Assembly: GCA_001001185.1 (NCBI GenBank)
Contig: LCKC01000001.1
Location: forward strand, 1-43,655
Reading direction: 5' to 3'
From: Parcubacteria group bacterium GW2011_GWB1_45_10
GTDB taxonomy: Bacteria > Patescibacteriota > Minisyncoccia > UBA6257 > Brennerbacteraceae
Length of the DNA: 43,655 bases
Part shown: in pieces, positions 4,707 to 41,580 of the stretch
Numbering within the stretch: position 1 is the stretch's first letter
How the letters are laid out: each line of letters begins with the position of its first letter
Position numbers and translations under genes: made by a program
Notes under the pieces: generated by a model
Databases searched by the model: none
Told to the model about the DNA's origin: nothing
Seen by the model: only the letters and a program-made list of their open reading frames with translations

Positions 4707-5885
4707 TTAGGGCGCTTCCGGAAAACCGAAATCAGATTCAATCTCCAGTAAGCGGTTGTATTTTGCCAATCTCTCGCCCTGGTAAAAAGCGCCGAACTTC
4801 ACAAAATCCGCGTTCACGCCGACTGCCAGGTCAGCCAGATAGTCGTCATTTGTTTCTTGCGACCGGTGGGAAACCACAATTTTCAAACCATTGGCTCTCG
4901 CCAGCTGCACGGTTTCCAAAGTTTCCGTCAGAGTGCCGACCTGGTCGGGCTTGATAATAATGCCGTTAATCATTTTCTGACCGAGAACTTCTTTCAGTTT
5001 TTTCGGATTGGTCACCGTCAGGTCGTCGCCGACAATCAAAGACTGGTTGCCAATCTCCGATAATAATTTCTGCCAATATTCATTAAAGCCTTCTTCGGGA
5101 AAAGGATCCTCAAAATACGAAAACGGATAATTTTTCTGGAACTCCAGATATTCTTTCATGTATTTTTCCGGCTCAAAACCGGAAATATTGTTTGCCGCGG
5201 CATCAATGCCCAGCCGGTCGCCCAAAGAGATTTTTTGAGCGAGCAGGTCCAGAACTTCTTTTTCAGACCGAAAATCAATGTCAAAGCCGCCTTCGTCTCC
5301 GTAGTTAACTTCTTTTTTTTCCGATTCAAAAAACTTCGCCAAACCGTCAAAAAACCGGTCAAGGCTTTCAATCTGGTCTTTGACTGATTTTTCTTTGGCA
5401 AGCAAAAGATGTTCCTGAACCGGCAAATGATTTTTTGCGTGAACGCCGCCTTCAATAATGTTAAACAAAATCTTCGGCGACTGATAAGAAAAACCGCCCC
5501 CGGCGGAAAAAAGTTCCGCCAGATGCTCAAAAAGCTGTTTTTTTCCTGATTGGGCCGCCAATTTCGCGCAGGCAAAGCTGACGCCGAGCATGACATTTCC
5601 GCCAAGTTTTTCTTTCTGAAAACTCGGGTCAAGCTCAATCATTTTCTTGTCAATCCCAGCCTGGTCAAAAACATCCATGCCGGACAAAATCGCGGTCAGC
5701 TCCCCTGACTTCAAAACTGCCTGGTCTGGCTCAAGATATTTGGCTTCGTATTTCCCTTCTGATTTGCCAAACGCGACAAACGCGTCGCTTGACGCGCCAG
5801 TGTCGTCAAAAACCGCCACCCTGATAGTTTCCGAACTGCGAAACCCCAAGGCTTTTTGAATCTGAATTTTTTGTATTTTCGCCAT
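4707..5885 (-). CDS. eno: Enolase (phosphopyruvate hydratase), short divergent form
   Basis: The motifs GDEGGF, VGDDLTVTN, IKPDQVGTLTET, SHRSQETNDDYLADLAV and ERLAKYNRLLEIE align with canonical enolase signatures. It is 392 aa versus about 430 typical. Confidence 0.85.
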   Translation of the reverse strand: MAKIQKIQIQKALGFRSSETIRVAVFDDTGASSDAFVAFGKSEGKYEAKYLEPDQAVLKSGELTAILSGMDVFDQAGIDKKMIELDPSFQKEKLGGNVMLGVSFACAKLAAQSGKKQLFEHLAELFSAGGGFSYQSPKILFNIIEGGVHAKNHLPVQEHLLLAKEKSVKDQIESLDRFFDGLAKFFESEKKEVNYGDEGGFDIDFRSEKEVLDLLAQKISLGDRLGIDAAANNISGFEPEKYMKEYLEFQKNYPFSYFEDPFPEEGFNEYWQKLLSEIGNQSLIVGDDLTVTNPKKLKEVLGQKMINGIIIKPDQVGTLTETLETVQLARANGLKIVVSHRSQETNDDYLADLAVGVNADFVKFGAFYQGERLAKYNRLLEIESDFGFPEAP

Positions 5886-8603: not shown

Positions 8604-10460
8604 TTATTCGCTTATCCTATTCTCCCAGTACCAGTACAAAATCTGTTTTGCCAAAGGCACGGCCGTGGCGCCGCCGGAACCGCCGGACTCAACCAAAACC
8701 AAAAGCAAAAACTTCGGATCTTCTGCCGGAATAAAAGAGACAAAAGCCGCATTTGTATCTGTCAGACTTGAGCTTGTCTGGATGCTGCCGGTTTTGCCGG
8801 CAACGGAAAACGGCAGGCCGGCCATTCTGCCGGCGGCCGAACCGTCAATGACTGTTCTTTCCATGCCGCGGTTGACAATCTTAAAATAATTTTCATCAAT
8901 CTGATACTCCCTTAAAACCTTTGGGCTGCCATGGTAAACCTCTTGTCCGCCTTCCGAGTTAAAAACAGAGTTAATCAGGAACGGCCGGAAAACTTTTCCC
9001 AGATTGGCGAAAAGCTGATAATTTGCCGCCAACTGGATCGGCGTGGTTTTAACGTAACCCTGGCCGATCGAATAATGATAAGTGTCGCCGATGCGCCAGA
9101 TGTCTTTGAAAGTTTTTTCTTTCCATTCAGGATCCGGCAAAAAACCAGGTTTTTCCCCCAAGAAGTCAGTTTCGGTTTTCTTGCCCCAGCCGTATTTTTC
9201 AAGATATTCTTTGATTCTTTCAACCCCCAAACCCTTGATATTGCCGTAGCCCCCGCCAATGGTGTAAAAATAAACGTTGGCAGAGTCAGCAATCGCTTCT
9301 TCCATATTAACGAACCCGTGAGCTTTCCAGTCCCTGAAAATATACGGCTGATCCGGAAAATAAGGATTTTCAATCGTAATCTTTCCTTCAGTGTCGTCAA
9401 CTTTAAACAACGGATCAATGATTTTTTCTTCCAAAGCCGCCAGCGCGATAAACGGTTTAATGGTTGAACCCGGGCTGTATTCGCCGCTGACTGCCCGGTT
9501 AAAAAACGGCTGGGCCTTGGAATCAGACCAGATTTTTTTTGAAGTATCAAAACCGGGATAGCTCACCAAAGCCAGGATCTCGCCGGTTTTCGGCTCAAGC
9601 GCGACCGCCACCGCGCCGGAGCCGGCGTCAAAAACATTGTCCCGGAAAATCTGATAGATTTTTTCCTGCAGCTTGGCGTCAAGCGTCAGCCTGATTGAGT
9701 TGCCGGTTTTAAAATAATTGCTTTTTTCCTGACCAATCAAGTCGTCCTTAACGTCAACCTGATAACTAAAACTTCCCCGGCTGCCGCGAAGGTAACTGTC
9801 ATAAAACAGCTCCACGCCGACCTTGCCGATTGTCTGGCTTAAAGACAAGTCCTGATTTTCTGCATGCTCTTTTTCCGTAACCAAGCCTGTATAGCCAAGA
9901 ACATGGCTCGTGGCTTCTTTCAAAGGATAATGCCTCTGGTAGCGGCCGACGAGCTTGAAACCAGGCATCAAAGCCTCATTGGCTTTAAACTCAATCGCCT
10001 TATCCAAGTCAAAGTTTTCAAAAACAACTTCTTTGTTTGAATCAAGTTTTTGGCTGATCTCGTCTTTGGCAATGCCCGAAATTCTTGACAAAGTTTCCAG
10101 CTGCAGCTCAAAATTATGGCCGGAATCCAGATTTTCTTTGATCGGCAAAACCTCAAAATAAACTTGGTTATCCGCCAGAACATCGCCATACCGGTCAAAA
10201 ATCAACCCCCGCGGCGCTTCAAGAAAAATATTCCGCAAAGAATTTTCTTCTGACCGCCGTGCATAAGCCGGATGCTGAAAAATCTGAAGCTTAAAAGCAA
10301 CCCCCAGGCTCAAGAACATGAAAAAAGCCACCAAGCCCAGGATGAAAAAAACATACTTTCTGCCGATGGAAAACTCCAGGCGCTTGGCGAAAACCGCGTT
10401 GTTTTCCAAAAGTATTTCTTCCGGCTCAATGATAAAACTGTTGTTTCTTTTGAGTTTCAT
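8604..10460 (-). CDS. mrdA: Penicillin-binding protein 2 (elongasome transpeptidase)
   Basis: 618 aa with an N-terminal TM anchor and the transpeptidase motifs STIKP (SxxK) and KTGS (KTG). It is positioned after mreBCD. Confidence 0.85.
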   Translation of the reverse strand: MKLKRNNSFIIEPEEILLENNAVFAKRLEFSIGRKYVFFILGLVAFFMFLSLGVAFKLQIFQHPAYARRSEENSLRNIFLEAPRGLIFDRYGDVLADNQVYFEVLPIKENLDSGHNFELQLETLSRISGIAKDEISQKLDSNKEVVFENFDLDKAIEFKANEALMPGFKLVGRYQRHYPLKEATSHVLGYTGLVTEKEHAENQDLSLSQTIGKVGVELFYDSYLRGSRGSFSYQVDVKDDLIGQEKSNYFKTGNSIRLTLDAKLQEKIYQIFRDNVFDAGSGAVAVALEPKTGEILALVSYPGFDTSKKIWSDSKAQPFFNRAVSGEYSPGSTIKPFIALAALEEKIIDPLFKVDDTEGKITIENPYFPDQPYIFRDWKAHGFVNMEEAIADSANVYFYTIGGGYGNIKGLGVERIKEYLEKYGWGKKTETDFLGEKPGFLPDPEWKEKTFKDIWRIGDTYHYSIGQGYVKTTPIQLAANYQLFANLGKVFRPFLINSVFNSEGGQEVYHGSPKVLREYQIDENYFKIVNRGMERTVIDGSAAGRMAGLPFSVAGKTGSIQTSSSLTDTNAAFVSFIPAEDPKFLLLVLVESGGSGGATAVPLAKQILYWYWENRISE

Positions 10461-10741
10461 CCCGTTAGAGACAGGAAACGCTTTAATCTGTTTTTCAAGT
10501 AGCGTTTGCCCATGCCTGATTTTAAATACTTTTCTCCCGACCTGGCGTCAGCAGTATTCATAGAGGCTTCATAGTAAATCAGGTCAAAAGGTCCACGGTT
10601 CTTCTTCCAACCAACAATTTCCTTATTATGCTCAGTAAAGCGTTTCCGTAAATCATCGGTAAAACCCGTATACCACAGGCTGTTTTTTCTACTCCTGAGT
10701 ACATAGATATAGTAGTATTGTTTGTCTATAACGGGATTCAT
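10457..10741 (-). CDS. GIY-YIG nuclease family protein (94 aa)
   Basis: YYIYVLRS...LWYTGFTDDLRKRFTEHN... is a GIY-YIG/URI core. Its start overlaps the mreD stop as ATGA, and its stop overlaps the mrdA start as ATGA. Confidence 0.85.
   Translation of the reverse strand: MNPVIDKQYYYIYVLRSRKNSLWYTGFTDDLRKRFTEHNKEIVGWKKNRGPFDLIYYEASMNTADARSGEKYLKSGMGKRYLKNRLKRFLSLTG
10460..10736 (-). mobile_element. GIY-YIG gene cassette bounded by 13-bp terminal inverted repeats and a TGAA direct duplication
   Basis: On the plus strand, tcccgttagagac (10460-10472) faces gtctataacggga (10724-10736), matching 12 of 13 positions as an inverted repeat. A ttca flank lies on each side (10456-10459 and 10737-10740). 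Confidence 0.65.
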
Positions 10742-11193
10742 TCCCCTTTCTTTTTTAATATTTTTGCCGCCATAAACTCCAAAGCCAGAACCGCCAGGAA
10801 TATTAAAATCGCCAGAAAATAAAGATTAAAGTCTTTGACTTTAAAAAGCCAAGCCGCCGCGGCAAAACTCAAATTTAAATAAACCAAGCCGCCAATCAAA
10901 GTTTTCACCCGCGGCTGAAACTTGGCGAATGTTTTGACAAAAAACAGCGGCATTGCCATCGGCAGACCCAAAAACAAAAAACTGTAAACCAGATTCATGC
11001 CGGAAAACAAAGAAAGAAAAGCGGAAAAAACTGTCAGAAGGACGAGACCTTCAAGCAAACCGAAAGAAAAGCGGAAAAAACCGTAACCAAACCAGACAAA
11101 AAACAAAATTCCCGAAGACAAAACCGGCGCCAAGCTGAAGCTCGACAAAGCCAGCAAAGCGACACCGGTCAAAAGAAAAAATGCAAAAACCAT
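10738..11193 (-). CDS. mreD: Rod shape-determining protein MreD (polytopic membrane protein)
   Basis: 151 aa, almost entirely hydrophobic helices, placed immediately after mreC. The call rests on synteny. Confidence 0.6.
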   Translation of the reverse strand: MVFAFFLLTGVALLALSSFSLAPVLSSGILFFVWFGYGFFRFSFGLLEGLVLLTVFSAFLSLFSGMNLVYSFLFLGLPMAMPLFFVKTFAKFQPRVKTLIGGLVYLNLSFAAAAWLFKVKDFNLYFLAILIFLAVLALEFMAAKILKKKGE

Positions 11194-13422: not shown

Positions 13423-15927
13423 CTACTTTCCGTCTTTTCCGAACGCAATCATTGTTTTGATGACTGAATCAGGGTTTAAACTGATGGCCTGGATGCCGAT
13501 TTTTTTCAAAAACATGGCAAACTCCGGATAGTCGCTCGGCGCCTGGCCGCAAATGCCGACGTATTTTTTCTTTTGATTGCATTTTTCAACAATGGTTTTT
13601 ATCAGCTCTTTGACTGACGGATTGTTTTCATTAGCAATGTGGGCAATGATACCCGAGTCGCGGTCAAGCCCCAACGTCAGCTGGGTCAGGTCGTTTGAGC
13701 CGATTGACATACCGTCAAACAGCTTCAAAAACTCGTCAATCAAAATCACGTTTGAAGGAATCTCGGCCATCATGTAGATTTTCAGATTTTTGCCTTTTTT
13801 CAGCCCGGCTTTGGCCATCACTGCCAGAACGCTTTTGGCTTCTTCAACTGTCCGGCAAAACGGCACCATTGGCACCACGTTTGTTAAACCCATATTTTCT
13901 CTGACTTTTTTGATTGCCTGGCACTCCAAGCCGAAAGCTTCGCTGAACTTCGGATCGTAATAACGCGAGGCGCCGCGCCAGCCAATCATCGGGTTTTCTT
14001 CATCCGGCTCGTAAAACGGGCCGCCGAGCAAAGTGCCGTACTCATTGGTCTTGAAATCTGAAAACCTGATAATCACGTCAAAAGGTGAAAAAGTCGCGGC
14101 AATCATGGCAATGCCTTCGGCCAGCTTGTCAACGTAATACTGCTTTTTGTTTTTGTAGCCCCGGGTCAGCTTTTCAACCTTTATCAAAGCGCTCTGAACT
14201 TCCCGGCGGCTGTGCTGATAAAAAGATTTCTGGTTTTTTCTTAATTTTTCATAATCAATCAAAATGTTCGGATGAACTCTTATTTTTGAAGCGATAATAA
14301 ACTCCAGCCGGCCGAGCCCGACGCCCTGGACCGGCAAAGAATGGTACCGGAAAGCTTCGTCAGGTGAACCGATGTTCAAAGAAATCTTGGTTTTCAGCTT
14401 GGGCAGGCTTTTCAAGCTGTGCTTCATCAGCTTGAACTTTAAGACTCCGGGATAAATCCGGCCAGCTTCGTCTGACGAACAGTCAACCGTGATTAACTGT
14501 CCGGTTCTCAAAACCCTGGTGGCGTCCTGACTGCCGACAATGCACTGGACGCCAAGCTCCCGTGAAACAATCGCCGCGTGCGAAGTCCGGCCGCCTTTGT
14601 CAGTGATAATCGCTGAAGCGATCTTCATAATCGGCTCCCAGTCCGGGTCAGTGATTTCGGTCACCAAAATCTCGCCTTTTTTAAAGGTGTTGATGTGTTT
14701 GGCGTCTTTAATCACCCTGACTTTGCCGGAAACAATCTTTGTCCCGATTGGAATGCCGGAAACCAGCGGCCTCGACGGCTTGGAAACAACGCTGTACTCT
14801 TCATAAACAGTTTCTTTTTTCCCGGCATGAATTGTTTCCGGCCGCGCCTGGACAATGAAAAGCTCTTTGGTCAAGCCGTCTTTCGCCCACTCAATGTCCA
14901 TCGGCGTGTATTTTTTGTGCTTTTTTGAAAAATGCTCTTCAACCTTGACGCAGTCTTTCGCCAAAGAAATCACTTCTTTGTCTGTCAGGGAATAAGCCTG
15001 CCTTTCTTTTTCCGGAACCGAAACAATCTTCACCGGCCGCCTGCCGGGTTTTAGTTGCGCCGGCCCAGTCGAAGCAGCTTGCGCTGATTTATCCTGAGAT
15101 TTGCCGAAGGAGCCTGCCGAAGCGTAAATCATTTTCAGATTTTTGCCGGAAAGCTTTTTGCTGATAATCGGATAAAAACCTTTTGCCAAAGACGGTTTGA
15201 AAAGAATAAATTCGTCCGGGTCAACTTTGCCCTGGACAATCATCTCGCCCAAACCGTAAATGCTGTCAATAATCACGGCGTTCTTAAACCCGGTTTCCGT
15301 GTCAATCGTGAAAGCGACTCCGGAAACCGCTTTGTCGGCCCGAACCATTTTCTGGACGCCGACAGACAAAGCGACGCTCATCTGGTCAAACCCCTTGTCA
15401 ACGCGATAGCTGATTGCCCGGTTGGTGAACAAACTGGCATAACATTTTCGCGTCGCTTCAAGAAGATCTTTTTCTCCGCGAATGTTCAGATAAGTTTCCT
15501 GCTGACCGGCAAAGCTGGCGCCGGGCAAATCTTCGGCGGTTGCCGACGACCTGACGGCGACGTCAACATTTTCCGTTTTGTACTGCCTTGAAAGCTCGTG
15601 ATAAGACTTTATAATCTGCTTTTCCAGATCTTTGGGAAACGCGCCGGACAAAATAAGATTTCTGACAATCTTGCCCCTTCTCGCCAAATCCATGACATTA
15701 TGCGTGTCCAAACCTTTCAAAGCTTGCCTGATTTTCTCTCCAAGGCTGTTAAACTTGACGAAATATCTGAATGTTTCGGCGGATACGGCAAAACCATTCG
15801 GAATCTTCACGCCCAAAGGCACAAGTTCGCGATACATCTCGCCCAAAGCCGCGTTTTTGCCGCCAACCAGCCCGACGTCTTTAATTGAAAGATTTTTGAA
15901 CCAAAAAATATGCCTCGCTTTCTTCAT
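13423..15927 (-). CDS. ppsA: Phosphoenolpyruvate synthase (pyruvate, water dikinase)
   Basis: 834 aa with an N-terminal PEP/pyruvate-binding domain (VGGKNAALGEM), the swivel phospho-His motif GGRTSHAAIVSRELG and a C-terminal PEP-utilizer barrel (GSNDLTQLTLG). Confidence 0.9.
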   Translation of the reverse strand: MKKARHIFWFKNLSIKDVGLVGGKNAALGEMYRELVPLGVKIPNGFAVSAETFRYFVKFNSLGEKIRQALKGLDTHNVMDLARRGKIVRNLILSGAFPKDLEKQIIKSYHELSRQYKTENVDVAVRSSATAEDLPGASFAGQQETYLNIRGEKDLLEATRKCYASLFTNRAISYRVDKGFDQMSVALSVGVQKMVRADKAVSGVAFTIDTETGFKNAVIIDSIYGLGEMIVQGKVDPDEFILFKPSLAKGFYPIISKKLSGKNLKMIYASAGSFGKSQDKSAQAASTGPAQLKPGRRPVKIVSVPEKERQAYSLTDKEVISLAKDCVKVEEHFSKKHKKYTPMDIEWAKDGLTKELFIVQARPETIHAGKKETVYEEYSVVSKPSRPLVSGIPIGTKIVSGKVRVIKDAKHINTFKKGEILVTEITDPDWEPIMKIASAIITDKGGRTSHAAIVSRELGVQCIVGSQDATRVLRTGQLITVDCSSDEAGRIYPGVLKFKLMKHSLKSLPKLKTKISLNIGSPDEAFRYHSLPVQGVGLGRLEFIIASKIRVHPNILIDYEKLRKNQKSFYQHSRREVQSALIKVEKLTRGYKNKKQYYVDKLAEGIAMIAATFSPFDVIIRFSDFKTNEYGTLLGGPFYEPDEENPMIGWRGASRYYDPKFSEAFGLECQAIKKVRENMGLTNVVPMVPFCRTVEEAKSVLAVMAKAGLKKGKNLKIYMMAEIPSNVILIDEFLKLFDGMSIGSNDLTQLTLGLDRDSGIIAHIANENNPSVKELIKTIVEKCNQKKKYVGICGQAPSDYPEFAMFLKKIGIQAISLNPDSVIKTMIAFGKDGK

Positions 15928-16071
15928 CCCGTTAGAAGCAAGAAACCTGCTTCAAAATATTTATGAGAGGTTTCTTAGCTGATTAATTTATCAATGTTTT
16001 TTATTACGAATCCCGATGGTTTCTGCCGACGGAGCCGCGTTTGACACGGCGGAGCAGGGCTTCTAACGGGA
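15927..16071 (-). mobile_element. ORF-less miniature derivative of the GIY-YIG cassette at the ppsA start codon
   Basis: Its termini tcccgttagaagc / gcttctaacggga form a perfect 13-bp inverted repeat, with ttca flanks at 15923-15926 and 16072-16075. It keeps the codons for MNPV... at one end and ...FLLLTG-stop at the other. Confidence 0.6.
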
Positions 16072-26684: not shown

Positions 26685-28121
26685 TTAATCAACCTGGATT
26701 TTTATGGCATCAATGTTTTTCGGAGAGCTCCTGACCCAGAAAGGCCAGACAGAGACCCTGATTTTTTGGACGCCTTCAAGCTTTAAAAGCTCTTTTTTGA
26801 GCTCTTCAATGTTTTTGCCCGCGATTTTCTGTTTGAACTCCAGGGTGTCCACCACAGCGCTCAAATCTCTTTTGACATTGGCTGTCAGGCTGATGGTTGA
26901 TTTTTCAAAATCAACTTCGGGATTTTCGTAAAGTATCTGGTAAGAAGCAGAGCTTAAATCAACTTTAAATCCCTGTGTTTCCGTCATCTTCGCTTCAATC
27001 GTTCTTTTAAGCTCGTTTTCGTCAAAAACAAAGATGGCCAAAGAACCGGAGATTGTCGCTTTCAGCTTTTCGGCCACTTCACCGACCGCCGACGTGGTTA
27101 TTTTCCCCAGATCAAACCTGACGGCTTTGTCCAAAAGTTTCAGGCTTTCCGGGGCCTGGCTTAAAGCCTCGCTTTTCGCTTTCTCATAAGCGTACTCAGT
27201 GATTTTTTCTTTGGCGAGCTTGATGTCGTCGGCGGAAACCGCGGTCGTCAAACCTGAAGCGCCGCCGGAAAAAGGATTTTCTGAAACGCCGTAAATATTA
27301 TTGAACTTCGCTGAACCGGAAAAAGCCGGAATCGCGAATCTGACAGGCCCAAGATTGTAATCCGGGCCGGCTTGGTCGGCTTTCAGCTGGGCGGAAATCT
27401 TGCCGGAAACAATTTTACCGGCTTCAGTGGTGTAGCCCGGCACGACTGTCCTTGAAACCAAACGGAAGATTTTCTTGTCCGGAGATTCAAACCTTGTTCC
27501 GGCGACCAAAATCTGGGAACTGGCGGAGTTTTCATTGTAAATAACAATCTCGCCCGAAGCGAAGCTTGAGCCCTGGCCCTGCCCGGTGGCCGGGTAATCC
27601 TGGGTGTAAGAAAAAGACTTTTCAAACTGGTAAACCGGCAGTTCAATGCTGCCACCCGAACCAAGCTCGCCTGGTTTTTTGAAAGTTACTCTGAAGCTTT
27701 GCGACTGAGTTTCTTTTTTCGTCTCAATGCCGATGTCCACCCGGCTGATGGTGGAACCGAACGCCCAAACCGCAAAAATCAAACCAGAGACCGCGCTGAT
27801 AATCAAAGCTGGTTTAAAAAATCTTCTTGGTTTTTTTGCTTTCGGCAAAACCGAAAACGGCGCGGATTCAAAAGGTTGTTGAACAGTTTCCGGAATCATA
27901 ACTTCCGGCTCTGAATTTGAAATCATGGTTTCAGCCAGAGGCTTTTCTTTTGGCGTTCTTTTGGAAAGTTTTGTCTTTGCCGACGCTCCTGAATTATGAG
28001 TGATTGTTTTCAAAAACTCGTCTTCCAAAGACGGCCTTGCCTCATTGGCTTCAAGCTCTTGTTCGGACTGCGGCCTTGGCGAAGAGTTTTTTACTTTAAT
28101 ATCAATGATTCTTTTGGCCAT
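26685..28121 (-). CDS. Hypothetical single-pass membrane protein (478 aa)
   Basis: A disordered charged N-terminus, one TM (ALIISAVSGLIFAVWAF) and a large extracytoplasmic beta-rich domain. The family is not confidently recognised. Confidence 0.5.
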   Translation of the reverse strand: MAKRIIDIKVKNSSPRPQSEQELEANEARPSLEDEFLKTITHNSGASAKTKLSKRTPKEKPLAETMISNSEPEVMIPETVQQPFESAPFSVLPKAKKPRRFFKPALIISAVSGLIFAVWAFGSTISRVDIGIETKKETQSQSFRVTFKKPGELGSGGSIELPVYQFEKSFSYTQDYPATGQGQGSSFASGEIVIYNENSASSQILVAGTRFESPDKKIFRLVSRTVVPGYTTEAGKIVSGKISAQLKADQAGPDYNLGPVRFAIPAFSGSAKFNNIYGVSENPFSGGASGLTTAVSADDIKLAKEKITEYAYEKAKSEALSQAPESLKLLDKAVRFDLGKITTSAVGEVAEKLKATISGSLAIFVFDENELKRTIEAKMTETQGFKVDLSSASYQILYENPEVDFEKSTISLTANVKRDLSAVVDTLEFKQKIAGKNIEELKKELLKLEGVQKIRVSVWPFWVRSSPKNIDAIKIQVD

Positions 28122-28252
28122 CCCGTTACTAAAATTTTGGCAATCGCAAGACTAAAGTCAAGCAAACTCCAAAATTAAAATAATTAATTATTGACTCATT
28201 TTATACGCCCGCTTTTTTGGCGATTCAGAAAAAAGCCAAAATTTAGTACGGG
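28122..28252. repeat. 131-bp inverted-repeat cassette abutting the start codon of the 478-aa gene
   Basis: The arms are cccgttactaaaattttggc (28122-28141) and gccaaaatttagtacggg (28235-28252). The arm plus the adjacent aatcgc resembles the A/B arm (ccctgtagtagaattttgaccaatcgc). Confidence 0.6.
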
Positions 28253-28266
28253 ACAAGTAATAAAAA

Positions 28267-38888: not shown

Positions 38889-39947
38889 TCAAGATTCCAG
38901 CTTTTCTTTGGTTTTAAAATCTTTGTTCACTTTTTTCCAAAACTGCTTTTTCTCCCTTTGGTAATCAAGGCTTTTCTTTTGTTCAACGAATCTAGCTTCG
39001 CTCTTGAGTTTGAGCCAGCTTTTGTACCGCTCAAAAGAAAGCTCTTTGTTTTCCACGGCTTTAAGAATGGCGCAGCCTTTTGAGCTTTGATGGTCGCAGT
39101 CGGAAAACTGGCAGTTTGAGCTCATTTTCTCAATCTCTTCAAAAAAATCGCTGACGCTGTCTAAAGACGCCAAAATCTGAAGCTCGCGCATGCCCGGGGT
39201 GTCAATCACCAAAAAACCTTCCGGCAGAACGAAAAGTTCGCGTTTAGTGGTCGTGTGCCTGCCTTTTGAGTCTTTCCCCCTGACTTCCTTCGTCGGCAAA
39301 ACTGTTTCTTTCAAAAAACGGTTGATGATGCTTGACTTACCGACTCCCGAAGAGCCGATGAAAACCGCGGTCTCGCCCGGCTTCATCAAACCCGCCAGCT
39401 CTTTTAAACCAGCTCCGGTTTTGGCGCTGGTCAGAACAACTTTTTCTTTTGCCAGCCTGGTTTTTATTTTCCGCAAAACAGAGTCCCCGGCGTTCAGGTC
39501 AAGTTTGTTAAAAACAACCACCGGCTCAACGCCGCCGTCCCTGACCGCCACCAAATACCTTTCCAACCGGTTCAGATTAAAGTTGTTGTCCAGGCCCTGG
39601 ACCAAAAACGCTTTGTCAATGTTTGCCGCAATCACCTGCTCTTCAATCGCCTGGCCGGGCTTCGGGTCTTTCCTTGAAATCTTTGAAAACCGCGGCAAAA
39701 CTTTTTCCAGCAAAACTTTTTTTTCGCCTTTAAGTTTTTTGAACAAAACCCAGTCGCCGGTTTTCGGCATGGCGCTTTTTCTGGAAAAGCTTTTCAAAAT
39801 AATGCCTTCAACTTCGCCGAAAGCCGTGTAAAGAATCCAGTTTTTGCGGTTCTCAACAGCCACCCGGCCAATCAGTTCTTCTTTGACGCCAAGCTCTCCG
39901 CCAATTTTATTTTTATAGTTTTCAAAACCCCAATGAGACAAGTTCAT
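38889..39947 (-). CDS. rsgA: Ribosome small-subunit-dependent GTPase A
   Basis: A circularly permuted GTPase (NKLDL...GSSGVGKSSIINRFL...DTPGMRE) with a C-terminal zinc knuckle (CQFSDCDHQSSKGC). Confidence 0.9.
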   Translation of the reverse strand: MNLSHWGFENYKNKIGGELGVKEELIGRVAVENRKNWILYTAFGEVEGIILKSFSRKSAMPKTGDWVLFKKLKGEKKVLLEKVLPRFSKISRKDPKPGQAIEEQVIAANIDKAFLVQGLDNNFNLNRLERYLVAVRDGGVEPVVVFNKLDLNAGDSVLRKIKTRLAKEKVVLTSAKTGAGLKELAGLMKPGETAVFIGSSGVGKSSIINRFLKETVLPTKEVRGKDSKGRHTTTKRELFVLPEGFLVIDTPGMRELQILASLDSVSDFFEEIEKMSSNCQFSDCDHQSSKGCAILKAVENKELSFERYKSWLKLKSEARFVEQKKSLDYQREKKQFWKKVNKDFKTKEKLES

Positions 39948-40072
39948 CCCGTTAGAAGCAGATCGCGATCTTAAAAAGACGAAATCTGCAAATTAATGTT
40001 ATATTTTCCTGTTTAATCTAATTACATTCTTTTTCCCATTATTTCCCGCGGCGATCGCGGCTTCTAACGGGA
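39947..40072 (-). mobile_element. ORF-less miniature derivative of the GIY-YIG cassette at the rsgA start codon
   Basis: It has the same 13-bp termini as the 15927 copy, with ttca flanks at 39943-39946 and 40073-40076. It retains MNPVRS... and ...LLLTG-stop remnants. Confidence 0.6.
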
Positions 40073-40086
40073 TTCATTTTCAGGAA

Positions 40087-41580
40087 TTAAACAATCACCA
40101 TGCCGATTATTCCCGCCAGCAAAACGTAAATCAGGCAAGGGACAAAGATTTTTTTGATAATTTCGGCTTCTTTGTTTTTCAAGCCGACAACAGTTTCCGC
40201 GGCAAGCATATCCGCCAGAGCAATCATATTGCCAGCCGCGCCGCCGACCAAAGCCAGGGCCAGAATAATCTGCGAGTTCATTGAAAGTTCAAACGCCGCC
40301 TGGGCAAGAAACCCGCCAAACAAAAGATTTGAGATGGTTGCCGAACCTGTCAGAAAACTGCCGAACGCGCCAACAAAAGGCGAAAAAAACGGCAGCCAGC
40401 TGGTTTCAAATGTTTTGGCGACAATCGCGATTAACGACGGCAAACCGGAAAAGTTCTGGCCCGAGTTTATCATCAGCTGGACCATTGCCGACATCGCAAT
40501 AATCACCAAAAACGGCCCGACCGCCTGGCGCAAAGAAAAAACCGCGGTCCGCAAAACCAGCTTTTCAGTTTTACGCCAGGCAGCCACGACCAAGATCCCC
40601 GCCAGAATAAATGCCAGCCCGGGATTGAACGCGCTGATTGAATGATTTATCAAAGGAATTTTAAAAGAAATGCCGCTCAAAAAAATCTTTCCCAGAACCA
40701 AAAGCAGAACCAAAAGCCCGTAAGGGAAAACCGTTTTCCGCAACGACAGCTTGGTTTGAAGTTTTTCTTCCGGCCTGACTGTCATCGCGTTTTTCGGCAC
40801 GAAGATGCCGAGCTTGGTGGAAACAAAAACCAAAAGCACGCCGATAATCGCGCCGATGATTGACGGAAACTCCTGCCCCAAAGGCACAACCAGAATTGAA
40901 GGCAGAACAAACGCCAGCCCGGACCAGATTGCGAACGGCACGGCTTCCCAGAAAAGTTTTTTTCTGTCCTGGCGGTGAGAAACCACGGTCCATAACATAA
41001 ACAGCGGCACAATCAAACCGACAATGTTTATCATTGCGGCGTAAAACGGCACGCTTGAACTTTCCAGCCCGAAAAACCCGATTCTAATCGGCGTCCCGGC
41101 CGCGCCGAAAACCACTGAACTACTGTTGCCGAACAAAGAAACAATCGCCGCGTTCAACGGCGCCAGTCCCAGCCCGACCAAAAGCGGCGCGACAATCGCG
41201 CTCGGCGTGCCGAATCCGGCCGTGCCTTCAATGAAGTTTTCCAAAAACCAGGCGAGCAAAATCACCTGGATGCGGTGGTCTTTGGAAAACGACTCCAGAT
41301 AATAAGAAACCGCTTCAATGACGCCGAATCTTTTTAAAATCTCCAAAAAAAATATCGCCCCGCCCAAAATGACAAAAATATCAAACGCGACAAAAAACCC
41401 TTTCCCTAAAGAAACAAAAGCCGCCTGCGGCACGATCCGCCAGTAAAAAAACGCCAGGGCCAAGGTCAAGCCGAGCGTCACAAACGAAGTTTTCGCCAAC
41501 GCCAGATTTTTTTTCAGCAAAAGGTAAATAAAGACCGCAAACGGCGACAAAGAAACTAAAAATGTCAGTGCCTGAGTCAT
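40087..41580 (-). CDS. lctP: L-lactate/glycolate permease (LctP family)
   Basis: A 497-aa polytopic transporter with LctP-like stretches (FIEGTAGFGTPSAIVAPLLVGLG, GSATISNLLFGGFQ-like). Confidence 0.8.
   Translation of the reverse strand: MTQALTFLVSLSPFAVFIYLLLKKNLALAKTSFVTLGLTLALAFFYWRIVPQAAFVSLGKGFFVAFDIFVILGGAIFFLEILKRFGVIEAVSYYLESFSKDHRIQVILLAWFLENFIEGTAGFGTPSAIVAPLLVGLGLAPLNAAIVSLFGNSSSVVFGAAGTPIRIGFFGLESSSVPFYAAMINIVGLIVPLFMLWTVVSHRQDRKKLFWEAVPFAIWSGLAFVLPSILVVPLGQEFPSIIGAIIGVLLVFVSTKLGIFVPKNAMTVRPEEKLQTKLSLRKTVFPYGLLVLLLVLGKIFLSGISFKIPLINHSISAFNPGLAFILAGILVVAAWRKTEKLVLRTAVFSLRQAVGPFLVIIAMSAMVQLMINSGQNFSGLPSLIAIVAKTFETSWLPFFSPFVGAFGSFLTGSATISNLLFGGFLAQAAFELSMNSQIILALALVGGAAGNMIALADMLAAETVVGLKNKEAEIIKKIFVPCLIYVLLAGIIGMVIV

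Follow-up and report, generated by a model that had tools for sequence, protein, structure and literature searches.

A 126-bp hairpin element on the rsgA start codon of a Parcubacteria genome is very probably a miniature of 277-bp GIY-YIG mobile elements

We analysed a 43,655-nucleotide stretch of the genome of Parcubacteria group bacterium GW2011_GWB1_45_10 (contig LCKC01000001.1, positions 1 to 43,655; hereafter the window), in which a short palindromic element lies on the start codon of rsgA, downstream of the lactate permease gene lctP. Our analysis indicates that this 126-bp element is very probably a non-autonomous derivative, similar to MITEs (miniature inverted-repeat transposable elements), of 277-bp mobile elements that each carry one open reading frame (ORF) for a 94-aa Slx1-like (UPF0213) GIY-YIG protein. 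Sequence comparison indicates that the element was inserted into the rsgA initiation site, between the A and TGAA, with duplication of TGAA, and that the original ATG and the upstream translation signals of the host now open a dead 12-codon stub. It also indicates that the copies of the family multiply as miniatures, nearly all at initiation codons and in one orientation, across many lineages of the Candidate Phyla Radiation (CPR), and that their hairpin is maintained by compensatory change.

The relevant genes are all on the minus strand, and the sequences of the rsgA element are given 5' to 3' on that strand. Read in this direction, the lctP stop TAA (40089-40087) is followed by TTCCTGAAA, by ATGAA, by the element from T40072 to A39947 and then by TGAACTTGTCT..., which is rsgA. 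The termini form a perfect 13-bp inverted repeat, TCCCGTTAGAAGC at 40072-40060 and GCTTCTAACGGGA at 39959-39947; counting the adjoining A/T, the repeat search returned a 14-nt pair that is 100% complementary (39946-39959 with 40060-40073). TGAA is present on both sides (plus-strand TTCA at 39943-39946 and 40073-40076). The final base of the element, 39947, doubles as the A of the rsgA ATG, and because this base is an A, an ATG is rebuilt before the untouched rsgA coding sequence. An earlier note on this DNA, drawn up by a model from the letters alone, had seen here the same 13-bp termini and TGAA flanks as in a copy on the ppsA start codon, and this is borne out by the sequences at 39943-40076 and 15927-16071. 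It had also described remnant ends, and translation confirmed both of them: a 12-codon stub starting MNPVRS... and, at the 3' end, DRDLLLTG followed by a TGA that overlaps the rsgA ATG at 39947-39945, out of frame with the stub. The decoy ATG that opens the stub lies, as it had said, 9 nt downstream of the lctP stop. The copies at 10460, 15927 and 39947 align at their ends only, the rsgA interior matching neither the ppsA copy nor the full-length copy, in agreement with the earlier view that the interiors of the two miniatures are unrelated. With up to 2 mismatches allowed, the terminal 13-mer occurs 5 times in the window against 0.93 expected, and 0 of 100 shuffles reach 5. The family profile (nhmmer) detects the rsgA element with E = 6e-16, the copy itself being among the sequences of the profile.

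When folded as RNA, the element reaches -40.7 kcal/mol against -25.6 +/- 3.3 for its shuffles (z = -4.5; 0 of 200 shuffles as good). Its ends form a 13-bp plus a 7-bp stem: CGCGATC (40059-40053) pairs with GATCGCG (39970-39964), a 4-nt ATCT bulge on the 3' arm parting this second stem from the outer one, and both AUGs are located at the base of the helix.

We looked at whether other sites carry the element. An identical RsgA protein is found on 13 public contigs, which come from Rifle groundwater metagenomes and from two NCBI metagenome-assembled genomes (MAGs). Among the 10 contigs that were read, 9 independent assemblies show the element without any difference, and in the tenth it is interrupted by a run of N. 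This run falls exactly within the element (L009:437-465; GCA_003521685.1, DPHN01000032.1), where the hairpin or the repeat probably broke the assembly. Since all contigs of the population carry it, the rsgA copy is fixed there. The closest non-identical RsgA proteins are 59% identical, and two of these relatives share the gene order HhH-GPD, lactate permease, RsgA, sigma-70, DUF8128. Both are devoid of the element, the permease TAA being followed by 7 nt and the rsgA ATG (TAA CCGAACA ATGGATTTA), and the RsgA N-termini align from residue 1 (MNLSHWGFENY versus MDLFSLGWENY). The empty-site comparison suggested by the earlier note thus came out positive, with two syntenic orthologous loci. Removal of the element and of one TGAA from the window gives TAA TTCCTGAAA ATGAACTTG, the pre-insertion start that had been predicted; the exact sequence remains a reconstruction, because the nearest empty sites are distant and read ATGGA.

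The termini of the element lead to its presumed parent. Homologues of the window's 94-aa GIY-YIG protein number 3057 at E <= 1e-5. Among the best 120 of these 3057, 69 are exactly 94 aa long, 70 start with MNPVR and 88 end in LSLTG, and these terminal residues are encoded by ATGAA-TCCCGTTAGA and TCTAACGGGA-TGA. Because the homologues run from MNPVR to LSLTG, the shared inverted termini correspond to the start and the end of the GIY-YIG ORF; the third positions of the terminal codons are nearly invariant, a constraint at the DNA level. One miniature subfamily retains 24 of 26 nt of the ORF 3' end, AAGCGTTTCCTG..TCTAACGGG, and together with the identity of the termini this upholds the GIY-YIG derivation proposed in the earlier note. 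A metagenome scan gave 537 relatives, of which 80 loci were kept and 41 proved intact with both ends. Of these 41 full-length copies, 36 end on ATG and 36 on a start codon followed by a long ORF; 28 have a perfect 4-bp repeat, TGAA in 26 cases, and 27 are 277 bp long. In P0051, P0064, P0006 and the window copy, the stop overlaps the ATG of the next gene by 4 nt. The other 39 loci (e.g. L183-L185, L196-L197) do not combine an intact ORF with both termini, and about 15% of the close GIY-YIG homologues (P0038, P0039, P0042 and others) have 86-87 aa, start with MF(Y/W)YVYVL and do not possess the MNPVR end; they could represent wrongly called starts, copies in decay or relatives that do not move. 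A 13-nt 3' end standing alone, ATCTCTAACGGGA, lies upstream of a full-length copy straight after the stop of the upstream gene (L214:395-412) and could be a footprint or a truncated copy; a similar ACTAACGGGATGAG is found directly upstream of the full-length copy of L244.

The full-length copy of the window runs from a host ATG at 10741 to a TGA overlapping the PBP2 ATG at 10460. It is located on the minus strand between an mreD-like ORF (10738-11193) and PBP2 (8604-10460), with ATGA overlaps on both sides, the mreD TGA with the GIY-YIG ATG and the GIY-YIG TGA with the PBP2 ATG. The target at PBP2 was an already existing stop/start overlap, and the chain of translational coupling is kept. Two relatives of this locus (L247 and L249, PBP2 71% and 66% identical) have mreC, mreD and PBP2 with a single ATGAA and no GIY-YIG gene. 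Their sites read ...AAAGAAAAGAG ATGAAATTTAAAAGAGAC... and ...GGAAAA ATGAAATTTAAACGCGAC..., the empty ATGAA site being ...GAG/ATGAAATTT..., against ...AAAGGGGA ATGAA[T...A]TGAAACTCAAAAGAAAC for the filled site of the window; by this comparison they constitute a clean empty site for the full-length element. The full-length element contains neither a start nor a stop codon of its own, because the A comes from the host, TG and AA from the upstream repeat and TGA from the downstream repeat.

Regarding the protein itself, Y13, Y24, R32, H38 and E58 are invariant in 47 GIY-YIG homologues. The closest solved structures by sequence (phmmer) are UPF0213 proteins, 1zg2 (E = 4.7e-6) and 1ywl (E = 3.6e-3). 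An AlphaFold model of the 94-aa protein (predicted local distance difference test score, pLDDT, 86) was compared with known structures by Foldseek, which ranked 1zg2 first and then several Slx1 (TM ~0.6, root-mean-square deviation 2.4-2.9 A), ahead of UvrC and I-TevI. These comparisons indicate a stand-alone minimal Slx1-like/UPF0213 GIY-YIG domain with its catalytic residues kept and a predicted nuclease activity. PHROGs and NCBIfam searches with this protein returned nothing informative past a weak match to a group I intron endonuclease. In Dunin-Horkawicz et al. 2006 (PMC1564403), 1zg2 and 1ywl belong to a bacterial Slx1-like group deemed vertically inherited, and selfish GIY-YIG enzymes are traced to a UvrC-like lineage. 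Slx1 is a structure-specific nuclease for branched DNA, according to the titles of the matched structure entries.

The family was then surveyed in one genome per bacterial or archaeal species with the pattern CCCGTTAGAAGC-N(95-125)-GCTTCTAACGGG, the terminal base pair and both flanks being left free. At least 120 miniature loci were obtained outside the window, a lower bound, and the family figures given here are those among the 120 matches listed. The copies come nearly all from Patescibacteria/CPR MAGs, with hosts in Taylor-, Zambryski-, Nomura-, Terry-, Wolfe-, Jorgensen-, Lipton-, Niyogi-, Uhr- and Falkowbacteria, Kazan and Microgenomates, and also in Paceibacteria. Several copies off start codons were found in MAGs with other labels, Gammaproteobacteria (L044, L090, L105, L114, L125) and Planctomycetota (L028, L123), which may reflect real occurrence or mis-binning; in L123, the junction forms a GTG followed by only a 34-aa ORF. 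Viral contigs, searched as possible vectors, contained 0 copies. The terminal pair is T..A in 92 copies and C..G in 24. In one orientation, the last base of the element opens an ATG or GTG in 98 of the 120 (89 ATG and 9 GTG, 82%), and in 87 of these 98 this codon leads into an ORF that has at least 80 aa or extends beyond the locus; among ATG junctions, placement on start codons is about 90%. A direct repeat of 4 bp adjoins the termini in 69 copies, of 3 bp in 18 and of 5-6 bp in 7, and none is seen in 22. In the start-codon class it reads TGAA in 30 copies, TGGA in 11 and TGAG in 7, and the base preceding the repeat is A in 70% of all listed copies. A profile search added 5 copies outside the length or sequence range of the pattern, all 5 ending on ATG; applied to the window in search of degenerate copies, the profile matched just the two miniatures.

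The C..G-ended copies define the junction. L051, L102 and L112 read ATGAA-C...G-TGAA and L121 is the TGGA equivalent; in these four the host start has changed from ATG to GTG and the upstream copy keeps ATG. Therefore, the terminal base pair is part of the element, the duplication consists of the 4 bp following the A, and it is the element that contributes the base with which the rebuilt start codon begins. The same copies rule out a duplication of 5 bp (ATGAA) with CCCG...CGGG ends, since they show ATGAA upstream and GTGAA downstream. The junctions indicate that the target is (A)TGRR rather than strictly TGAA. A further C...G subclass (L016, L018, L028, L030, L067, L083, L104, L110, L126) sits off start codons at GTTGAC/GTCAAC sites with a TTGA/TCAA repeat; TTGAC, which resembles a -35 promoter hexamer, is recreated there at both junctions.

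Expected placement was calculated from a crude gene call on the same 887 kb of loci, with a coding density of 81%. Random TGRR sites would fall on gene starts in 1.5% of cases; if only non-coding and start sites were tolerated, the value would be 8.7% for TGRR and 26% for ATGRR. The count on start codons against expectation that the earlier note had called for, 82% of the 120 listed versus 1.5-26%, thus speaks against random placement. Its further claim of a TGAA specificity at starts holds as far as the 98 of 120 copies on ATG/GTG are concerned and gives way on the sequence, the target being (A)TGRR, and on the cause, enzyme and selection not being separated by these counts. An alternative is indeed that insertion occurs at any TGRR, or at any AT-rich site, and that, CPR genomes being tightly packed, copies survive only on start codons, where they are harmless and are not lost by sloppy deletion. 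In line with this are the coding density of 81%, the 33 of 57 insertions that overlap the upstream stop or lie within 30 nt of it, flank logos with no conserved motif past ATGRR and the fixation of all three window copies; moreover, of the 22 listed copies off start codons, 12 are still within 25 nt upstream of a long ORF, 4 of them with a TATG(A) repeat containing the start codon. However, the tolerance models fall far below the observed 82% and about 90%, an A precedes the repeat in 70% of listed copies, orientation is fixed (49:0, see below) despite perfectly palindromic outer termini, and in tandem copies the regenerated ATGRR appears to have been hit again. We regard survival by selection alone as a real possibility, on the doubtful side; it concerns one step of the mechanism and not the identity of the element. 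It is rather probable that the bias reflects an enzyme preference for ATGRR reinforced by selection. As to the tandems, two miniatures stand head to tail at L070:4466-4790 and share a TGG repeat, the second having full-length-type termini TCCCGTTAGAGAT/ATCTCTAACGGGA, and in L089 (~4929-5090) the right flank of a miniature, ATGAATCCCG, passes directly into another element.

We also compared the architecture of the miniatures. About half of the listed copies combine an outer stem of 13 bp with a second stem of 7-8 bp and have 4 bulged nt (ACCT or ATCT) on the 3' arm; the second stem occurs in compensatory variants: CGCGGTCA/TGACCGCG, CGCGATCG/TGATCGCG, CTCGGTCA/TGACCGAG and CGCTTCGC/GCGAAGCG. 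In a 44-sequence alignment that includes the window copy, 99% of the stem cells pair against 33-44% with slid partners, a percentage inflated by the pre-selection of members for at least 6 paired positions. Three of the second-stem pairs vary on both sides, e.g. GC 25 / AU 13 / GU 6 in one and GC 38 / UA 4 / AU 1 in another, and the compensatory types are real despite the pre-selection. The gatcgc/gcgatc pairing of the earlier note is therefore genuine, as CGCGATC/GATCGCG, without being peculiar to rsgA: it is a family feature, because the rsgA copy has the CGCGATC plus ATCT form of a subfamily. All 49 of the 49 copies that could be scored have the bulge on the arm nearer to the gene; with the side of the bulge constant, the element keeps a single orientation to the host gene (49:0) in spite of outer termini that form a perfect palindrome.

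This architecture bears on the possibility that each miniature is a full-length GIY-YIG insertion decayed in place by internal deletion, the rsgA copy having never moved as a miniature. Miniature ends are indeed GIY-YIG ORF ends, one subfamily holds about 25 nt of the ORF 3' end and the two window miniatures have unrelated interiors. Contrarily, the miniatures share features that are not found in the full-length gene, namely an AGAAGC/GCTTCT terminal extension, a second stem accompanied by a bulge of 4 nt, and lengths with a mode of 119-122 nt. Interiors are nearly identical between copies with unrelated flanks (L042/L082 99%, within the same MAG; L041/L116 96%; L023/L127 93%), the rsgA interior is about 70% identical to the widespread GCGATCGC subfamily of other genomes, and no full-length copy was found in the ~890 kb around the miniatures. 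Decay in place is thus quite improbable.

Another reading is that of a host cis-regulatory RNA hairpin controlling rsgA translation through start occlusion, coupling to lctP or an RNase III site. The strong and significant fold would suit it, as would the compensatory second stem (with 21 G.U pairs at one position when read on the sense strand), the fixed orientation to the mRNA and the two AUGs at the helix base. Against it, the same element sits on unrelated genes (rsgA, ppsA and about 100 others) between flanking repeats, orthologues exist that are free of it, the interior is variable and Rfam 15 gave no match in the window at gathering scores, the sole sub-threshold match being an unrelated chance one. 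We consider a regulatory origin unlikely, and a regulatory role would be an exaptation on top of mobility, not an alternative origin. It is still far less probable that we are dealing with some other palindrome (an integron attC site, REP/BIME, the intrinsic terminator of lctP), with chance or with an assembly artefact. In favour of the first, the element is an imperfect intergenic palindrome of attC-like size, and its GTTAGAA/TTCTAAC resembles the attC core sites. However, these motifs are in reverse order (GTTAGAA 5' and TTCTAAC 3'; attC is 5' RYYYAAC ... GTTRRRY 3') and the neighbours are syntenic conserved core genes, not cassettes, for which reasons the attC assignment was rejected; no integron integrase search was made. 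No promoter or terminator was predicted in the element, the terminal repeat count was reached in 0 of 100 shuffles, and the element is identical in 9 independent assemblies.

Altogether, these results favour a mobile origin of the rsgA element as a GIY-YIG miniature, and a mechanism can be proposed for it. A full-length GIY-YIG protein, for which the 10460-10741 protein of the window, 29 kb from the rsgA element, is a candidate source, would act in trans on the TCCCGT.../...ACGGGA ends of the miniature, recognising them probably as a hairpin or as the branch point of a cruciform, as Slx1 does, and would make a 4-nt staggered cut at an (A)TGRR target; host repair or ligation would then finish the insertion. 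We give this trans-mobilisation, with recognition of the ends and a staggered cut, about an even chance. By landing on a start codon, a full-length copy would gain promoter, ribosome-binding site, ATG and TGA for free and leave the host gene intact, and the insertion would be lost only through precise excision.

The translation of rsgA behind such a stem has to be accounted for. Family stub ORFs are 18 codons long at the median, the median distance from their stop to the host ATG is 72 nt and only 4 of 59 reach this ATG, and Shine-Dalgarno-like motifs were found in the last 16 nt of the element in just 2 of 100 copies; on these counts, a conserved coupling ORF or Shine-Dalgarno motif was rejected as the route to host translation in the miniatures. 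Tentatively, with a little less than even confidence, we suggest that translation of rsgA continues because the 126 nt are looped out by the hairpin, because translation of the stub opens the stem or because RNase III cuts it, the rebuilt AUG being accessible in each case. Looping out, by which the leaders of phage T4 genes 38 and 25 work, would keep the upstream signals near the rebuilt AUG. An RNase III cut, as known for Correia elements, would leave a near-leaderless mRNA.

Several points count against this whole interpretation. We know of no GIY-YIG or Slx1-like nuclease that performs insertion, and the joining of strands is not explained by a nuclease alone. No filled/empty polymorphism at strain level was seen among 13 RsgA, 13 PpsA and 18 PBP2 contigs. 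The nearest empty rsgA sites, at 59% RsgA identity, read ATGGA and not ATGAA. The repeat varies in length from 3 to 6 bp and is absent from 22 of the 120 listed copies, the pairing percentage of the second stem carries the pre-selection mentioned above, and, no conserved coupling ORF or Shine-Dalgarno-like motif having been found near the rebuilt ATG in the miniatures, translation of rsgA is left unexplained.

The rsgA element can be compared with known systems. It is 126 bp long without a functional ORF and has perfect terminal inverted repeats; a target-site duplication is seen against empty sites, those at rsgA coming from relatives at 59% protein identity; the copies are dispersed and multiplied (two in the window, at least 120 elsewhere); and a coding partner exists in the 277-bp GIY-YIG elements that share TCCCGTTAGA/TCTAACGGGA and the TGAA repeat. 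Judged by structure, the rsgA copy is a MITE, and we infer its mobilisation in trans. Like bacterial MITEs (Correia/CREE of Neisseria, RUP, ERIC, Nezha), it is a short element without coding capacity that has terminal inverted repeats, duplicates a short target, shares its termini in many copies with a larger coding element and forms hairpins in transcripts. Unlike them, its presumed autonomous partner is a one-ORF 277-bp GIY-YIG element and not a DDE insertion sequence, its termini are the two ends of the ORF of this partner, and it sits on initiation codons in a single orientation with a terminal base that rebuilds the start.

Free-standing GIY-YIG homing endonuclease genes (T4 seg/mob, I-TevI family) are likewise selfish nuclease genes wedged between host genes, often overlapping the start of a neighbour and using host expression signals. 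Those enzymes have DNA-binding domains and copy into one cognate allele by homologous repair, whereas the parent here is a bare 94-aa domain and its elements have inverted termini and target repeats on many unrelated genes of one genome. A homing gene was rejected as an explanation, the rsgA copy being devoid of an ORF, the parent a nuclease domain alone and the copies spread over rsgA, ppsA, PBP2 and about 100 unrelated genes. The best sequence and structure matches of the parent protein are with Slx1/UPF0213 (YhbQ-type) proteins; Slx1 cleaves branched and stem-loop DNA, in keeping with the hairpin formed by the ends of the element. Bacterial Slx1-like proteins are treated as vertically inherited repair proteins in PMC1564403; here, by contrast, a mobile element would have such a protein as its cargo and probably as its engine.

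IS200/IS605 and REP/RAYT elements are also very small, hairpin-dependent and placed in one orientation beside a specific 4-5-nt sequence. They differ by a HUH Y1 transposase that acts on single-stranded DNA, by subterminal hairpins in place of terminal inverted repeats and by the absence of target duplication and of any link to start codons. An IS200/IS605-type element was rejected, as a 4-bp repeat is present in 69 of 120 listed copies, the inverted repeats reach the very ends and the only ORF sharing the termini is GIY-YIG; no HUH transposase search was made. The related model of a 3' tetranucleotide borne by the element is less parsimonious, as TGGA, TGAG and TGGG match on both sides far oftener than they mismatch. 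Rickettsia palindromic elements resemble the family in being palindromic repeats that invade genes with host expression kept; they differ in lying in frame inside coding sequences, being translated with the host protein, having no known nuclease partner and being unrelated in sequence. GIY-YIG ORFs have been described in non-intron insertions of CPR rRNA genes (PMC11270868), at rRNA-gene sites; start-codon targeting, termini and miniatures are not reported in that paper. No prior description of the family was found in the full-text literature, searched also with the terminal sequences, a coverage outside which most subscription journals lie, and the family is apparently undescribed. One apparent lead, PMC13285730, proved unrelated.

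The features of the window are collected in Table 1. Pfam recognised RsgA, lactate permease, PPDK/PpsA, PBP2 and the 94-aa GIY-YIG protein. In the ppsA miniature (15927-16071), one stop codon separates the stub from the 3' remnant, both being in one reading frame (MNPVRS...LIS-stop-...FLLLTG-stop), and the second stem is CCTGCT/AGCAGG with a 6-nt bulge. The fourth related element (28121-28253) has the ends TCCCGTACTAAATTTTGGC ... GCCAAAATTTTAGTAACGGGA; with its last A begins the ATG of a 478-aa ORF (26685-28121) that lacks an annotation and lies downstream of alaS, and of its flanks only TG is repeated, the upstream one being TTG.

Table 1. Coordinates of the rsgA element, its parts, its neighbours and the related elements of the window
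Feature	Position	Strand	Evidence or remark
Miniature element, 126 bp, T...A inclusive	39947..40072	-	termini, flanks, repeat search; family profile
5' terminal inverted repeat TCCCGTTAGAAGC, 5' arm of outer stem	40060..40072	-	invariant in family alignment
3' terminal inverted repeat GCTTCTAACGGGA, 3' arm of outer stem	39947..39959	-	family alignment
Upstream TGAA direct repeat	40073..40076	-	with A40077, original host ATG 40077-40075, now decoy start
Downstream TGAA direct repeat	39943..39946	-	with terminal A 39947 of the element, regenerated rsgA start codon
Second stem, 5' arm CGCGATC	40053..40059	-	fold, family alignment
Second stem, 3' arm GATCGCG	39964..39970	-	ATCT bulge 39960-39963 between it and outer stem
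Stub ORF MNPVRSRDRRGK-stop, 12 codons	40039..40077	-	opens at decoy ATG; spans 5' arm of both stems entirely
Host gene rsgA, 352 aa	38889..39947	-	Pfam RsgA_GTPase E = 7e-49
Upstream lactate permease gene lctP	40087..41580	-	Pfam Lactate_perm E = 3.5e-82
Full-length 277-bp relative, 94-aa GIY-YIG ORF	10460..10736	-	Pfam GIY-YIG E = 2e-14
Sister miniature, 145 bp, on ppsA/PPDK start codon	15927..16071	-	same 13-bp termini and TGAA flanks; fold z = -6.1
Fourth related element, 133 bp	28121..28253	-	same terminal hexamers, different inner repeats; fold z = -3.3

A bolder view, which falls slightly short of being our expectation, is that the 277-bp element is a prokaryotic DNA transposon of a new class and, among autonomous ones, the smallest known, with a structure-specific 94-aa Slx1-like nuclease as its transposase and a start-codon specificity determined by the enzyme, a 'start-codon parasite' specific to the CPR. 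Its promoter, ribosome-binding site, start and stop would then all come from A/TGAA sites, the duplicated TGAA giving the TG and the stop, and the 126 bp on rsgA would count among its hairpin miniatures. Should the family move in the way proposed, its nuclease would be a new type of enzyme for DNA transposition beside DDE, HUH, tyrosine/serine recombinases and Cas1, and the known size range of autonomous mobile elements would gain a new lower limit. The strategy, by which an element is both harmless and expressed through rebuilding a start codon and borrowing host translation signals, has apparently not been described before, and such an insertion is nearly impossible to lose save by precise excision. 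In the CPR, the small genes annotated as 'GIY-YIG nuclease' or 'excinuclease ABC subunit C' are probably mobile elements in thousands of cases; at such sites, gene callers may choose the decoy ATG or mis-set starts, and the hairpin can break assemblies. Finally, rsgA, PBP2 and ppsA are among the essential genes that tolerate a stable ~20-bp stem directly on the AUG, and this offers a natural test of translation initiation in the CPR.

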